Source of the DNA: a virus
Lineage: Duplodnaviria; Heunggongvirae; Uroviricota; Caudoviricetes
Virus record (IMG/VR): IMGVR_UViG_3300029647_000066
DNA: 12,210 nucleotides
Direction: 5' to 3' (one strand)
The notes below the pieces were generated by a model. That model was not told the DNA's origin, did not search any database, and saw only the letters and a program-made list of their open reading frames with translations. How positions within the stretch are numbered: position 1 is the stretch's first letter; each line of letters opens with the position of its first letter. The position numbers were made by a program, and so were the translations under genes. Of this stretch, positions 7,026-12,210 are shown piece by piece.

Positions 7026-7262
7026 ATGATGAATATATTTGAACGTATTATAGGTAAAGCTGCTATTGAAAAGGAAAGAGAACTGGCGAGGAGGCTTGAA
7101 GCATCTGGAACAAACACTGTTGAGGTGGTAGGTCGAGGCGCGATTATCACGTCTAAAGAAGACTTGGCAAGCTCAGATACAGTAAAATTGATGAAAATTA
7201 AAGCAAGAAAAATAGTTTCTGAGCAGGTAAAGCAAGAAGAAAAAATGGCTAAAGGGAATTAA
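7026..7262 (+). CDS. Small charged hypothetical protein, first gene of the rightward cargo operon
   Basis: 78-aa ORF, Lys/Glu-rich and probably helical. GGAGG at 7017-7021 four nt before the ATG. AT-rich codon usage unlike the backbone. The next gene starts 3 nt after its stop. Confidence 0.6.
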   Translation: MMNIFERIIGKAAIEKERELARRLEASGTNTVEVVGRGAIITSKEDLASSDTVKLMKIKARKIVSEQVKQEEKMAKGN

Positions 7263-7264
7263 TA

Positions 7265-8026
7265 ATGTTTGCTTTATTAATTATTCCATTACTTGTGAGT
7301 GGTTATATTGTATTAACCACTCATCCTTATCATTTCTATAGATTACACCGTTATGATGGGCAGTTGTTATATATGAAGTCAGCCGCCTTTGGTCTGTGGT
7401 GTTTTATATGGACATTGATTATAGCTTACTTAATAAAATGGATATGTCCTAGCTTCCATCCTGTCACGATGGTTCGGGAACAATTAGATCTCAAACTTAG
7501 TGACAATGGTACTGAAAGAATCATAGGATGGATGATTTTACTTTCATGTGGAACGATATTTTTGGCTTGGATATGGAGTGTCGGTGCTAGATATTTGGTT
7601 ATATATAGAGCTAAAATTATAAATTATATCCAAGGGGTAAAGGCTGCCAATATTGATTATGAGAATCTTGTCATGCTAAGGATGAGGCAAGAGCTTATTA
7701 ATGATAATCCAATGGATGAAATATTTTTTGATTCGTTAGTTGATAGACGTTCAATACTTATTACGTTGCAAAATAAAAAGACATATGTAGGAATTGTTAA
7801 CGCATTAGGTGAGCCTAACGAGAAAGAAGGACCTAACCAGTATGTTTCAATCTATCCTATTATCTCTGGGTATAGAGATAAGGATTCATTGAAAGTAATC
7901 TTGGTGAATGAATATAGAGAGCTTGAGGATGCTGATACTAGTATCATCTTTCCACTAAAAGAAATTTCGCAAGTTTCTTGGTTTGATATGGATATTCATA
8001 AAATAGTTGAAAATAATAAGGTGTAG
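7265..8026 (+). CDS. Predicted integral membrane protein (about 3 TM helices N-terminal, soluble C-terminal domain), function unknown
   Basis: 253-aa ORF with AAGGGA seven nt before the ATG. Hydrophobic segments FALLIIPLLVSGYIVL, AAFGLWCFIWTLIIAYLIKWI and IIGWMILLSCGTIFLAWIWSVGA, followed by a hydrophilic domain of about 130 aa. AT-rich. Ends just before a hairpin shared with the convergent operon. Confidence 0.7.
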   Translation: MFALLIIPLLVSGYIVLTTHPYHFYRLHRYDGQLLYMKSAAFGLWCFIWTLIIAYLIKWICPSFHPVTMVREQLDLKLSDNGTERIIGWMILLSCGTIFLAWIWSVGARYLVIYRAKIINYIQGVKAANIDYENLVMLRMRQELINDNPMDEIFFDSLVDRRSILITLQNKKTYVGIVNALGEPNEKEGPNQYVSIYPIISGYRDKDSLKVILVNEYRELEDADTSIIFPLKEISQVSWFDMDIHKIVENNKV

Positions 8027-8059: not shown

Positions 8060-10324
8060 TTATTTTTGACGAATCCTGATTTTTGGTTGTTCACGAACAA
8101 CAATATCAGTTTCTTTCCAACCAAGATTATTTATTTCAACCTCGGCTTCGTTGTAGACTGTAGTAGAATTGGCAAGAGATCTTAACGTAATAGCCAATAC
8201 AGCACGTTGAGGTGAAGATAGAGGCTCTTGCTCTGCTCGTCTCTGAACATCAAGTTTAAGTCTCCATTGCTCCCCATTTATACCTTGCGGAAATTGTTTT
8301 CTATAAACTTTGACTGGAGACCATTTGAAGCCATTTTCTATCAGTACCTTTTCAAATAATTCACTCTTTTCTTTTATTTGTGGAATTTTTCCGCTATGTA
8401 TCCATTTAGCGTTAACTGGATCATAAGTGTAAGTCCCGAATGACACATCCACATTAGAACGGCAATATTCAGATGGGTAGTCATAATCAAGCGGTGGAGA
8501 ATAAACGAGTGTCATAATAATTTCACCTGTGAATTTTCCATCCTCAGTACGTAATGACTGTGGTATTACAAATGGCGTTCTACTGAATTCAATACCTTCT
8601 CGGGTATCTATTTCAAATAGAAATGTAATCTCATTTTTATTGCAACCAATAATATCATTTATATGATCGCTTGGGCGTCCAAATCCTTGATAATTAAACG
8701 CATAATGCTCCGTTTTGGCTGGTGAGTTTTTTAACGCAGAATGAATTAATAGTGCCTTGATACGTTCAGGCGATGGTGAAATAGAACCATTAACATCTAG
8801 TTCATGCCACAGTGATGCCGCTAAACTTGAGATTAACGGTGCTGATAAACTTGTGCCAATACTTTCGCAAAGAGCATTGTCCTCGCCAATAGCTATGATT
8901 CCGGTATGTTCACAGTTTAATTTACTGTCACAATTACCTCCAAAGTGATTTATCTCTGGTTTGGGTATAAAGGCTGGGCCGGGACCTCTTCTAGAAAAAG
9001 ATGAAGGTTCAAATCTTTTGACCACAGAGTCAGACGATTCTAAATGGGCAACTGAGCCAACAGTTAATGAACGAACAGAATCTGCGGGGGCTGATATTCT
9101 GTCATGCCCACCTAATTCTTGAGGAGGCCAGGTTCGTTGAGGATCATAAATGTAGTTGCCGGATGCTACGACGAAAAGACAATCATGCTCATCATGAAGT
9201 GCATTTAAAAAATGCCCCAATTCAGAGAAGCTGTCTTCAGAACATGGGGATTGACAACCTAATGACAGATTCCATACACGTACTTCTGGATAGGTGGTCA
9301 CAGCCTCTCGGATAGCTTTCATTAATTGTGGCAATTTGAGCGTACCATCTTTGGGAAAGGCTGCAACATCAACAATTTCAGCTTGGCATTGAGGAAAACC
9401 AGCATAGTTATTCAACCATCTTCCATTAATTGCTAAACTTGCAACCATGTTCCCATGAGAATAGTCGTGTTCTCCTTTTACTAAATCTAAACTATCCCAA
9501 ATCCATGGCCTAAGTATGTTGTTATTGGGATCGACTCCGCTATCTATAATTCCGAGTAGTGGATAATGTTTATCCTCTTGAGGTAAGGGAAAATCATCTA
9601 GGTCTAGAGTTTCAGCAGGAATATATTGCGATACTGTATGAGTAAGACCAAATGTTGGCATAGGTTCTAATTTTCGTATGCCAATAAAACTTGCCAGTTG
9701 GGCGATGTTATCATTCCCTTTTACTTCATATATACTCAAATCTGAACTGATATCATACTTTTTGGGTTTTTGTATTCCTAGTTCATCTGCAAATTCCATT
9801 AATTCTTTGTCGATACTGCGGTTAGTTGTTCTATCTTTATGGTCAAAGAGTTTCAGAAGAAAACTATCTGATTTATTTTTATCTATAACATCATGGTTAA
9901 GACTAAAAGGTTCGATCTTTTCAATTACAGCAATATGTACTGTCCCATTATGAGAATTAGTGCTATTTTCAATTTTTTTGCGAAGTTGTGCTAACCCTTT
10001 TTCAGTAACACTTATAAGTAATTCTCCAAAATTATCACTGCCTATTACGGGACATGTATTATCACCTAATAGGCTTGATGGGCGATGTGACTTAGCAAGA
10101 GCTTTTTCATGAAGAGTAACTCTAGCCACCGCCGGTATATTGGGCCATTTTTTAAATGAGCTCTGGAAAAAATTTTTAACGTCATCGACTTCTTGTTTGA
10201 GTCTATTTTTTAGACTAGTTGTTACTGTTCGGATAGGTTGTTTCTTTCCGAAATTATATGTTTTTTCAGTAAAATCTTGAGGTGTCGCCTCAATTATTTT
10301 TATTGGTCTTTCTTTGTTACTCAT
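8060..10324 (-). CDS. Subtilisin-like serine peptidase (S8 family), predicted cytoplasmic, with N- and C-terminal extension domains
   Basis: 754-aa ORF. S8 catalytic motifs in canonical order: Asp in LLGIIDSGVD (about residue 261), His in DYSHGNMVASLA (about 290), oxyanion Asn in FVVASGNY (about 390), Ser in GTSLSAPLISSLAASL (about 492). No N-terminal hydrophobic signal sequence. Its ATG overlaps the stop of the upstream ATPase gene (ATGA at 10321-10324). Confidence 0.9.
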   Translation of the reverse strand: MSNKERPIKIIEATPQDFTEKTYNFGKKQPIRTVTTSLKNRLKQEVDDVKNFFQSSFKKWPNIPAVARVTLHEKALAKSHRPSSLLGDNTCPVIGSDNFGELLISVTEKGLAQLRKKIENSTNSHNGTVHIAVIEKIEPFSLNHDVIDKNKSDSFLLKLFDHKDRTTNRSIDKELMEFADELGIQKPKKYDISSDLSIYEVKGNDNIAQLASFIGIRKLEPMPTFGLTHTVSQYIPAETLDLDDFPLPQEDKHYPLLGIIDSGVDPNNNILRPWIWDSLDLVKGEHDYSHGNMVASLAINGRWLNNYAGFPQCQAEIVDVAAFPKDGTLKLPQLMKAIREAVTTYPEVRVWNLSLGCQSPCSEDSFSELGHFLNALHDEHDCLFVVASGNYIYDPQRTWPPQELGGHDRISAPADSVRSLTVGSVAHLESSDSVVKRFEPSSFSRRGPGPAFIPKPEINHFGGNCDSKLNCEHTGIIAIGEDNALCESIGTSLSAPLISSLAASLWHELDVNGSISPSPERIKALLIHSALKNSPAKTEHYAFNYQGFGRPSDHINDIIGCNKNEITFLFEIDTREGIEFSRTPFVIPQSLRTEDGKFTGEIIMTLVYSPPLDYDYPSEYCRSNVDVSFGTYTYDPVNAKWIHSGKIPQIKEKSELFEKVLIENGFKWSPVKVYRKQFPQGINGEQWRLKLDVQRRAEQEPLSSPQRAVLAITLRSLANSTTVYNEAEVEINNLGWKETDIVVREQPKIRIRQK

Positions 10325-11484
10325 AATATCTCTCTATAGTTCTTAGTTAGCCTTGACACTTTAGCATTTGAAAGCCCTAGTATTTTTGCTATCTTTCGTA
10401 TTGTAAATCTTTTGGGATTGTATTCTCTGAGAGTGGTCACAATCTTTATAAGTAAATTATCTTCTTCATCAAATGTAACTCCCTTCGCTTCTAAGATAGC
10501 CTCGACTAAAAATCGGGTATCGATTTGTTTATTATTGTAAACCAGAGCATGTCGCTCAGATCTTAAGCAGCATTGTTCTATAAATGAGCAGTTTAGCCCT
10601 GATGATATTTCCGCAAGGTCATCAACAAAATCGTCATATGTAGCTTTTATGTTTGAATATTGTTCAAATAGTTGTTTTCTGACTTCAAAATCAGGCAATC
10701 CAATAGATATTCTATACTCAAAGCGCCTCCAAACTGCGCTATCTAGAAGATTTTCATGATTACTTGCAGCAATCAATATTGTTTCTTCAGGTAGATTGTC
10801 AATATTTTGCAATAAAGAAACCACCACCCTCTTCAGTTCACCTAACTCATGCTGATCATCTCTAGCCTTTGCTAGAGAATCTAGTTCATCTAGAAATAAA
10901 ACACATGGTGCTTTACTTGCATACTCAAATAGCTGCCTGATATTTTTAGAAGTAGACCCCAGATATGATGAGACTAAGGAGTCACATCTTGCAGTAAGAA
11001 GCGGTAAATTTAGACAGGATGCAATATATTTTGATGTCAAGGTTTTACCACAACCTGGTGGCCCATATAAAATCATAGAGGATGTCACGCCAAGACCGGC
11101 ATCCTTTAATTCTTTAGCTCGTTCAGTGAAAGTCAAAAATTCTTTAATTTTTTTCAGAGTGCTATCTTTCAACAATGGGAGTTGAATTTCAGAAGACGGT
11201 TGAGTTACGTCTGCTAAATCAAATTTAGTTTCTTTATCTACAGGTAATGTATCAAGACGTTCAAAAATAGGTGATGTACTGCGTGATACTTTCTGCAAGT
11301 TAAACGTGTTTTTATCTTGAATACTACCTCTAATGGCTGAAGCAAGCTCAGGCAGCCCCATAGAATCATAGGAACGCGCGAGTTTCGAAGCCTGCCGAAC
11401 AAAAGCAACTTTATCCCCTTTGAGTCCAAGACTGATAAGCTGCGAAAGTATCTCGTTTGTGGTCATTTGTGATACAAACCTCAT
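10321..11484 (-). CDS. AAA+ ATPase (classic-clade AAA domain) with C-terminal HTH-like tail
   Basis: 387-aa ORF. Walker A in LYGPPGCGKT (about residue 147), Walker B in CVLFLDELD (about 199-200), second-region-of-homology-like segment in AASNHENLLDSAVWRRFEYRISIGLP. C-terminal RKIAKILGLSNAKVSRLTKNY resembles a helix-turn-helix. First gene of the leftward cargo operon; start could instead be the second ATG at 11466. Confidence 0.9.
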   Translation of the reverse strand: MRFVSQMTTNEILSQLISLGLKGDKVAFVRQASKLARSYDSMGLPELASAIRGSIQDKNTFNLQKVSRSTSPIFERLDTLPVDKETKFDLADVTQPSSEIQLPLLKDSTLKKIKEFLTFTERAKELKDAGLGVTSSMILYGPPGCGKTLTSKYIASCLNLPLLTARCDSLVSSYLGSTSKNIRQLFEYASKAPCVLFLDELDSLAKARDDQHELGELKRVVVSLLQNIDNLPEETILIAASNHENLLDSAVWRRFEYRISIGLPDFEVRKQLFEQYSNIKATYDDFVDDLAEISSGLNCSFIEQCCLRSERHALVYNNKQIDTRFLVEAILEAKGVTFDEEDNLLIKIVTTLREYNPKRFTIRKIAKILGLSNAKVSRLTKNYREIL

Positions 11485-11725
11485 TAATCTGTTGTCTAAA
11501 TGGCTTATAGGTGAGACAAATTTCTATTTTAATGTAGTTTATATGTATTTTGGTGAAACGAACACTATGTTTTACATAAATCTTTCAGGTTTGGAGTTCT
11601 TGGAGGGCATAGAGTTGCATCAATTTGCATTCTAATTAGACTTTTTTATTGCTATCGTATTCTACATGTGACTAGGTCTGCCCTTCCTGATGCGTTTGCA
11701 TTAAAACCTCCCCATGAAGCGGGCG

Positions 11726-11744
11726 GGCGAGGCGGGGAAAGCAC
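11726..11744 (+). other. cos site (P2-type 19-nt cohesive end)
   Basis: GGCGAGGCGGGGAAAGCAC is present exactly and matches the P2 cohesive-end sequence as I recall it. It lies in a GC-rich block just after the cargo island, where the P2 map places cos (after the tin/old slot). Confidence 0.6.
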
Positions 11745-11883
11745 TGCGCGCTGGCGGTGGTGCTGATTTTATTTTTTCAGCGTCTGAGCGCGTCTTGATG
11801 GCGTTTAGATTGTGCGCCGGGGCGTTGGTGTGTCTGCGGGGTGTTTTGTGCGGTGGTGAGCGTGTGAGGGCGTGATGACGGGG

Positions 11884-11908
11884 TGTAAAAAAGCCGCCCG
11901 CAGGCGGC
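11884..11908 (-). terminator. Rho-independent terminator for the leftward transcript ending near cos
   Basis: GC hairpin GCCGCC (11893-11898) and GGCGGC (11903-11908) with loop CGCA. On the minus strand it is followed by a run of six T (plus-strand AAAAAA at 11886-11891). It sits 5 nt downstream of the stop of the minus-strand ORF ending at 11914. Confidence 0.5.
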
Positions 11909-11913
11909 GATGT

Positions 11914-12126
11914 TCAGCCGTTGTCAGTGTCCAGTGAGTAGTTTTTAAAGCGGATGACCTCCTGGCCGAGCCAGCCGTTTATTTCCCGAATCCTGTCCTG
12001 TAACGGGATAAGTTCATTGCGGACAAAGACCTTTGCCACTTTCTCAATATCACCCAGCGACCCGACGTTCTCCGGCTTGCCGCCCATCAACTGAAAGGGG
12101 ATGCGGTGCGCGTTGCGTATTTTCAT
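11914..12126 (-). CDS. Hypothetical 70-aa protein, last ORF of a leftward transcription unit next to cos; may be a fragment of a larger late gene
   Basis: Complete ORF by ATG and stop, but with no Shine-Dalgarno and an in-frame stop 3 codons upstream. Backbone-like GC content and followed by a terminator. In P2 the leftward portal gene ends near cos, so this could be the 3' portion of an interrupted portal-like gene. Not verifiable here. Confidence 0.35.
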   Translation of the reverse strand: MKIRNAHRIPFQLMGGKPENVGSLGDIEKVAKVFVRNELIPLQDRIREINGWLGQEVIRFKNYSLDTDNG

Positions 12127-12210
12127 GAAAGGAGATCACTCAATAACTTCCATCGAGATCGGGTAATAACATTTGAACAGATCGCTGAATAACATCGATG
12201 GAGATCACTT

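Follow-up and report, generated by a model that had tools for sequence, protein, structure and literature searches.

Sequence anatomy of a canonical P2-like cos site beside a defence cargo and an ISEc12-interrupted portal gene

Organisation of the locus

The window (the whole stretch of 12,210 nucleotides analysed here, IMG/VR record IMGVR_UViG_3300029647_000066) carries near its right end two cargo genes, a cos site, a G+T-rich block and the 3' part of the portal gene Q of a P2-like prophage (Table 1). The cos site is located between the hotspot that follows gpA and the Q gene with its terminator tQ, a position shared with P2 and the intact relative SC480. A hotspot between gpA and gpQ, with cargo beside cos, has been published for P2-like prophages (Rousset et al. 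2022, PMC9122126).

The cargo is a known defence system, IetAS, located in the cos-adjacent hotspot to the left of cos. IetA is an AAA ATPase and IetS an S8 peptidase; Pfam AAA and Peptidase_S8 are both listed for the genes of the contig, and the two genes form the adjacent pair expected of this system. IetA and IetS also adjoin cos in 12 complete E. coli genomes, relatives with an intact Q, of which SC480 is one. Locus L023, used repeatedly below, likewise has an intact Q. Just upstream of IetAS are two unannotated plus-strand ORFs (7026-7262 and 7265-8026), which gave no PADLOC match and occur in SC480 as well.

To the right of cos, the late P-Q operon ends in an intrinsic terminator whose hairpin occupies 11893-11908, with the T-run on the minus strand; the hairpin was also recovered in the RNA fold. 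It corresponds to the P2 feature tQ at 160-181. The stop codon of the portal gene occupies 11914-11916. Homology to all P2-like phages and E. coli prophages found ends at 12113, and the fragment up to this point translates to the C-terminus of Q. What follows is the end of an insertion sequence: it begins with TG, contains internal repeats and is identical to the left end of the annotated ISEc12 copy with istA/istB in E. coli BCE-1. The window derives from a human-gut metagenome contig of 12,290 bp (ENA ERZ918399, k127_12368) that stops inside this element; beyond it lie the remainder of Q and the terminase and late genes.

Table 1. Coordinates of the cos region and neighbouring features in the window
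Feature	Position	Strand	Basis or description
IetS	8060-10324	-	PADLOC, E = 1.1e-273
IetA	10321-11484	-	PADLOC, E = 9.1e-132
P2-family cos core, 55 bp	11697-11751	+	TGCATTAAAA, 7-nt variable patch, ATGAAGCGGGCG, 19-mer, TGCGCGC
Hypervariable 7-nt patch	11707-11713	+	CCTCCCC in the window, CCGCCCC in P2
Cohesive-end sequence, 19 nt, predicted 5' overhangs	11726-11744	+	GGCGAGGCGGGGAAAGCAC; identity to P2 cosL/cosR
GGCGGTGGTGC followed by A/T tract (GATTTTATTTTTT)	11752-11779	+	GGTGGTG conserved in both clades
Direct repeat A (CGTCTGAGCGCGTCTTGATG)	11781-11800	+	Within conserved island 11780-11803
Variable G+T-rich core of the block	11804-11859	+	Between repeats A and B
Direct repeat B (CGTGTGAGGGCGTGATG)	11861-11877	+	Same composite motif as repeat A
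Intrinsic terminator tQ of the late P-Q operon	11887-11908	-	GCCGCC-TGCG-GGCGGC then TTTTTT; terminator scan
Portal gene Q, 3' fragment	11914-12113	-	Last 66 codons and stop; P2 Q has 344 codons
ISEc12 (IS21 family), left terminal 97 nt, inserted in Q	12114-12210	+	97/97 against the BCE-1 copy

The cohesive end

The 19-mer is the sole match within the window even when up to three mismatches are allowed, and no chance matches are expected (200 shuffles). It is identical (19/19) to both cosL (1-19) and cosR (33575-33593) of P2 (NC_001895) and to the first 19 nt of P4. The cohesive end of phage 186 has the form GGCGTGGCGGGGAAAGCAT and matches at 17 of 19 positions; the 186 record places the top-strand cut at the 5' end and the bottom-strand cut at the 3' end of this sequence. 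Several records of Yersinia and Escherichia P2-like phages, deposited from their physical ends, begin at the base which aligns with window position 11726. Among the 78 P2-clade loci gathered in this work, the 19-mer is unchanged in 76. The original prediction had taken this 19-mer for the cohesive end of P2-like phages, and the agreement with the P2 and 186 termini, together with the phage-record ends at 11726, bears this out.

The ends of P2 are 19-nt 5'-extruding and lie inside a 55-bp cos region required for packaging (PMC3931495, PMC9594776, PMC5694545). By analogy with the published ends (PMC3931495), the nicks would fall at 11725/11726 in the top strand and at 11744/11745 in the bottom strand, leaving 19-nt 5' overhangs. 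Since this is established P2 biology, a P2-type terminase (gpP, gpM) would be expected to nick before 11726 and after 11744, acting on the excised closed circular genome. The two nick sites, as read from the sequence, show a partial two-fold symmetry (5'-GCGGGCG^G in the top strand, 5'-GCGCGCA^G in the bottom strand).

The 55-bp cos core

Circularised junctions of P2, P4 and 186 were built and aligned with the window. All four have in common only TGCATTAAAACC..CCC..AAGCGGGCG, the 19-mer and TGCGCGC, which together make up 11697-11751. Outside the 19-mer, this conservation lies mostly to the left (11697-11725), with just 7 bp on the right. Definition of the 55-bp cos region of P2 is reportedly to be credited to Ziermann and Calendar in 1990.

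For a broader comparison we gathered loci in three sets, defined by a P2-type portal (78), by a 186-type portal (69) or, for the P4-like loci, by a search with Psu (73); these correspond to 72 P2-clade, 67 186-type and 64 P4-like unique loci (203 in total). The core is kept across all three sets: the 19-mer and TGCGCGC are invariant or nearly so, and TGCATTAAAA and ATGAAGCGGGCG are nearly invariant. The window retains every core position that is at least 90% conserved among the 203 unique loci. It agrees with P2 in 53 of the 55 positions; the two differences lie at 11709, inside the hypervariable patch, and at 11714, a polymorphic position. The window shares its left 29-mer with L023, a locus with an uninterrupted portal gene and the same cargo. 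Since the differences fall at variable positions and the same 29-mer occurs beside an intact portal gene, the core appears functional as judged from its sequence. The description of the cos as intact therefore stands in the sense that each position invariant among relatives is kept. All sequence features examined for a cos site and for P2-family membership were found, so 11697-11751 can be classed as the canonical cos site of a P2-like (Peduovirus) prophage, a site of a long-known kind.

Two side observations concern the core. First, the left 29-mers fall into 37 different sequences among the 78 P2-type loci, although the portal proteins are 99% identical, and the variation is concentrated at 11707-11713. 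A hypervariable patch thus sits inside an otherwise "conserved" 55-bp core, with nearly invariant flanks. A left-arm hairpin (CCGCCC/GGGCGG) was considered as a constraint on this part and rejected, as its 5' half is hypervariable, its 3' half is invariant and there is no covariation. Second, an imperfect inverted repeat lies at 11748-11763 on the plus strand, directly to the right of the bottom-strand nick (GCGCTGG CGG TGGTGC, then GATTTTATTTTTT). It was flagged by the terminator scan, and the 186 clade has a cleaner CGCGCCA-GAGG-TGGCGCG in the same place. This repeat could be a plus-strand terminator or a part of the nicking-site symmetry.

Mosaicism at cos

Comparison of the window with relatives (window 10420-12113 against L023 and 11476-12115 against L009) has revealed a sharp change at cos. 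The window and L023 have no differences over 10420-11763 and 20 differences over 11764-12113. In the comparison with SC480, the 12 differences are all located at or after 11709. As the differences start so sharply at cos, a recombination breakpoint at or just to the right of the cohesive end is suggested. It has been proposed that cos ends drive cargo exchange (PMC9122126), and the mosaicism of the window fits this proposal.

Interruption of the portal gene and mobility of the prophage

Q is interrupted at 12113/12114, just 369 bp to the right of cos. In BCE-1, ISEc12 is 2,581 bp long, is flanked by a 5-bp target duplication, has annotated istA/istB and splits the portal gene into pseudogenes. 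The BCE-1 insertion lies one bp from that in the window, has the duplication GCGCG and resides in a prophage with a different cargo; the one-bp offset could be due to an indel. The Q/IS junction of the window is reproducible, since a chimeric 70-aa ORF spanning it has been recorded on five contigs. No complete E. coli RefSeq genome combines the IetAS cargo with this ISEc12 insertion, which may be present in only a part of the population.

ISEc12 is found in the portal genes of P2-like prophages at three positions: that of the window (12113/12114), that of BCE-1, and the Q start codon in strain 98201 and others, where the duplication is CTCAT. The copies compared (L001 4771-7351 and L002 4260-6840) are each 2,581 bp long with a 5-bp duplication. 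Such repeated hits may reflect a preferred target, or else prophage inactivation that is tolerated or selected.

The portal protein is indispensable for the phage head. No intact Q is present in cis: 66 of the 344 codons lie on the cos side of the insertion, and P and M are outside the window. Judging by this gene structure, the ISEc12 insertion in Q leaves the prophage unable to package its own DNA. The original prediction had argued that an intact cos implies packaging and mobilisation of the prophage and its cargo, and this part of it fails at the split portal gene. An intact cos is necessary for packaging and far from sufficient.

The size of the genome points in the same direction. The prophage is estimated at about 34 kb (from SC480), and the 2,581-bp (2.6 kb) insertion would bring it to about 37 kb; the P2-like isolates listed range from 28.9 to 34.8 kb, below this estimate. 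For P4 with P2 machinery, the preferred packaging substrate is excised covalently closed circles cleaved at cos, not chromosomal DNA (PMC2231350). Loss of cos together with increased size abolishes P2 progeny (PMC9942202).

It is therefore very unlikely that the intact cos and the G+T block act as a terminase recognition region from which the prophage and its cargo are still self-packaging and mobilisable. The cos core is intact, as such a reading would have it, and the genes of the early and lysogeny modules look complete (integrase, repressor and Cox by Pfam matches, RepB and gpA in the contig gene list). It is opposed by the split Q, by the estimated size, by the absence of progeny from the enlarged, cos-less P2 and by the satellites discussed below, which are packaged by the same terminase and have no block. 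The cos site and IetAS could be mobile only with the help of a P2-like phage, co-resident or superinfecting, that supplied the portal protein in trans, and only if the enlarged genome still fitted the capsid.

Composition and anatomy of the G+T block

The segment 11745-11880 contains 75.7% G+T (G 58, T 45, C 22, A 11). Across the 12.2 kb, the highest value for a stretch of 136 nt is 77.2%, in the one that begins at 11750; the mean is 52.2% (sd 5.0). Not one of 1000 shuffles attained this value, the highest being 73.5%, so the skew is real and not due to chance. The string which had been quoted as an example of it is found exactly at 11830-11886, with 82.5% G+T. The strong skew claimed for this segment is thus the strongest in the window; the accompanying description of the strand as almost entirely G and T was overstated, about one quarter of the letters being A or C. 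The true right limit of the block is 11886, where the A-run of the portal terminator starts. The block (11745-11886) is accordingly the spacer that separates cos from the portal-operon terminator tQ, and it is specific to P2- and 186-type enterobacterial phages.

Within the spacer, parts conserved in sequence alternate with parts conserved only in composition. The A/T tract (11764-11779) precedes repeat A in both clades; its A/T-rich character is kept, and its sequence differs in 186-type phages. Island A (11780-11803) shows 83% identity between the window and the 186-type loci, close to the 87% of the core. A rare G-to-T change is present in the island of the window at 11795, where 70 of 73 relatives have G. 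The variable core between the repeats is only 34% identical between the window and the 186-type loci, yet its G+T content is 80% in the P2 clade and 75% in the 186-type set. TG/GT steps occur there at 1.1-1.3 times the composition-based expectation.

The two repeats share a composite motif, CGTCTGAG-N1-7-GTGATG, located at +36 and +115/116 from the 19-mer, about 80 bp apart. The copy at +36 is present in 55 of 60 P2-clade and 42 of 63 186-type unique loci (less than 1% of composition-matched shuffles), the copy at +115/116 in 49 of 60 and 30 of 63, respectively. Both copies were found in 50/60 P2-clade and 31/63 186-type unique loci, again compared with less than 1% of composition-matched shuffles.

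Searches for other known elements returned little. There was no RNA family match in Rfam at E <= 1 within 11400-12210, no Pfam signal in the cos/block region, no G-quadruplex motif even with loops of up to 12 nt and no exact IHF consensus WATCAANNNNTTR within 11600-11950. The window contains no exact Chi site; a single 1-mismatch site is present in the block (11750), and a Chi role was rejected, as this site is oriented so as not to protect the left end.

A plus-strand ORF of 53 aa (11714-11875) runs across cos, and a hypothetical protein is annotated there in some records. It is scarcely credible as the gene of a small protein expressed from the circular or prophage form alone. Its start codon is lost in many relatives (ATA, ACG, GTT, ATC), its frame closes after 14-35 codons in most 186-type loci, and the region gives no Pfam or Rfam signal. 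With neither start codon nor reading frame conserved, the coding candidate was rejected.

Relatives with and without the block

The block is absent from all 64 unique P4-like satellites, where the DNA to the right of cos has about 50% G+T. In these satellites conservation ends at +7, and a variable cargo hotspot begins at +8 after the 19-mer. Their conserved flank is on the left of cos instead (GGCGCGGTCTGAGCGTGTCAGTGCAAC). It includes GGTCTGAGCGTGTC at -51 to -38 (L171-L250), 12 of whose 14 nt agree with the first half of repeat A in the phages, where repeat A is on the right of cos. The left flanks of P2- and 186-type loci keep a degenerate form, GGCGCGG.T..AGAG.G...ATGCAAC; the window has GGTCTGCCC at -51 (11675-11683).

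More distant phages also do without the block. phiCTX, RSA1 and Smp131 keep the core and GCGCGC and have no G+T block beside cos; other genes lie between cos and the portal in these phages, and the composition was read beside cos. In phiCTX (NC_003278, 1-220 and 35310-35580; L252/L255), an annotated "region 3 containing R4, R5, R6 repeats" spans cos, so that repeats near cos are on record for a distant member of the family. Among the 186-type loci, a small ORF takes the place of the block in L139 and L151, L152 keeps only island A, and in L051 1.3 kb is inserted between the core and repeat A.

Since the satellites are packaged by the same terminase, and phiCTX, RSA1 and Smp131 also lack the block, it can be at most accessory and not the recognition site. 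Cosmids with the P4 cos are packaged efficiently by P2 (PMC9942202, PMC2231350), so the block cannot be an essential recognition element. Longer flanks around cos improved transduction (PMC9594776). The original prediction had proposed the block as a possible terminase recognition region. The common core lies mostly to the left of it and both satellites and distant phages manage without it, so that proposal is weak and at best partly right; the positioned repeats leave room for an accessory role.

Taken jointly, the evidence points, with a probability of about 80%, to a canonical P2-like cos site, a G+T block which is not the common recognition site and a portal gene split by ISEc12 that bars self-packaging.

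Possible roles of the block

The simplest view is that the block has no function and is a spacer inherited with the portal module, its skew being due to ancestry or to local mutational bias. Within the P2 clade it is indeed less conserved than its neighbours: the mean majority fraction is 0.924 for the block, 0.986 for the Q coding sequence and 0.968 for 11752-11799. Some relatives and all the satellites exist without it. We nevertheless regard this view as quite unlikely. The variable core remains 75-80% G+T, compared with a background of 52%, at an identity between clades as low as 34%. This counts against neutrality, because neutral drift should erode composition. The two repeats also keep both sequence and register. 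Composition that outlasts sequence decay, together with two repeats fixed in position, argues that the block is not a neutral spacer.

The composition could alternatively matter on the other strand, where a C-rich, rut-like RNA would load Rho and back up termination at tQ. Such a back-up would stop late P-Q transcription from crossing cos into the cargo genes, which have the same orientation. The minus-strand RNA from 11886 to 11745 (142 nt) consists of 43.7% C, 33.1% A, 15.5% G and 7.7% U, and about 100 nt after the tQ hairpin are essentially unpaired in both minimum-energy and centroid folds (z = -0.5). In composition and fold, this RNA has the properties expected of a rut site, namely at least about 70-80 nt that are untranslated, C-rich, G-poor and weakly structured. 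Moreover, the block is confined to genomes whose portal operon terminates right next to cos, and its composition rather than its sequence is conserved. On the other hand, tQ already looks like a strong intrinsic terminator (six G-C pairs followed by six U), and Rho loading leaves two positioned, sequence-conserved repeats unexplained. phiCTX, RSA1 and Smp131 show no such block in the composition read beside cos, a result that bears alike on a packaging and on a transcription role. Overall, this role is unlikely.

We prefer to see in the block a dispensable, phage-specific accessory site for terminase loading, similar in logic to the lambda cosB, and would put this at somewhat less than an even chance. 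The layout would comprise the nicking site, an A/T tract, a repeat, flexible TG-rich DNA and a second repeat, all on the side of the terminase genes. Conserved repeats at fixed positions beside the nicking site (+36 and +116) are what a cosB-type element should have. Its presence in all DNAs packaged by the terminase, which should also be expected, was not observed. The packaging of P4 cosmids that carry no block, its absence from L139 and L151 and the 1.3-kb insertion in L051 likewise speak against the cosB-like reading.

As an extension of the accessory-site reading, we tentatively suggest that the right-hand cos extension may be a phage-specific terminase-loading module that gives the helper a packaging advantage in cis over P4-like satellites, perhaps with a Rho-loading function as well. 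Such a module would consist of the A/T tract and two CGTCTGAG..GTGATG direct repeats bracketing the composition-constrained TG-rich core. In P4-like satellites the repeat is present as half a copy only, on the other side of cos. The Rho-loading function would shield cos from late transcription; the two roles are not mutually exclusive. The literature we retrieved describes only the 55-bp core.

Comparison with known systems

The window is closest to P2. The 19-mer is shared in full and the core almost so; the spacer, tQ and the start of Q are also nearly identical, and the map position between an old/tin-type hotspot and Q is the same. The two differ in the two left-arm substitutions already described (11709 and 11714), a few in the spacer, the cargo (IetAS in the window, old/tin in P2) and the ISEc12 interruption of Q.

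186 and PSP3 (Eganvirus) have the same succession of elements: core, GGTGGTG, A/T tract, repeat A at +36/37, G+T-rich core, repeat B at +115, terminator and portal. They differ at two nucleotides of the 19-mer (GGCGTGGCGGGGAAAGCAT), and have a variable core of unrelated sequence (34% identity).

P4 is packaged by the same helper terminase (PMC9122126, PMC2231350). Its 19-mer is identical and its 55-bp core the same as in the window, whereas it has no G+T block or repeats on the right, its hotspot starts at +8 and its conserved flank is on the left. The window is also the same in kind as the published P2-like defence hotspot (PMC9122126): cargo directly to the left of cos between gpA and gpQ, with mosaicism that breaks at cos.

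The resemblance to lambda is one of analogy only, namely a partially symmetric nicking site followed by an A/T tract and repeated motifs on the side of the terminase genes. In lambda, cos consists of the cosN nicking site and of cosB, with its IHF bend and repeats that bind terminase. The lambda and P2 sites have no similarity in sequence, and the P2 ends are 19 nt long, in contrast to 12 nt in lambda. P2 machinery prefers monomeric circles (PMC2231350), unlike lambda, which uses concatemers, and P2-type repeats are dispensable for satellites.

Overall, the cos site with its right-hand extension is not a new kind of element. Its description fixes the exact position of the window on the map of P2 (hotspot, cos, portal) and corrects an attractive inference, as an intact cos does not make a prophage mobile. 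The conserved repeats and the composition-constrained spacer, both absent from the satellites, are possibly useful for the design of P2/P4 cosmids and for understanding helper-satellite competition. Spread of IetAS from this prophage would depend on a helper phage, or on recombination at cos as suggested by the mosaic pattern.
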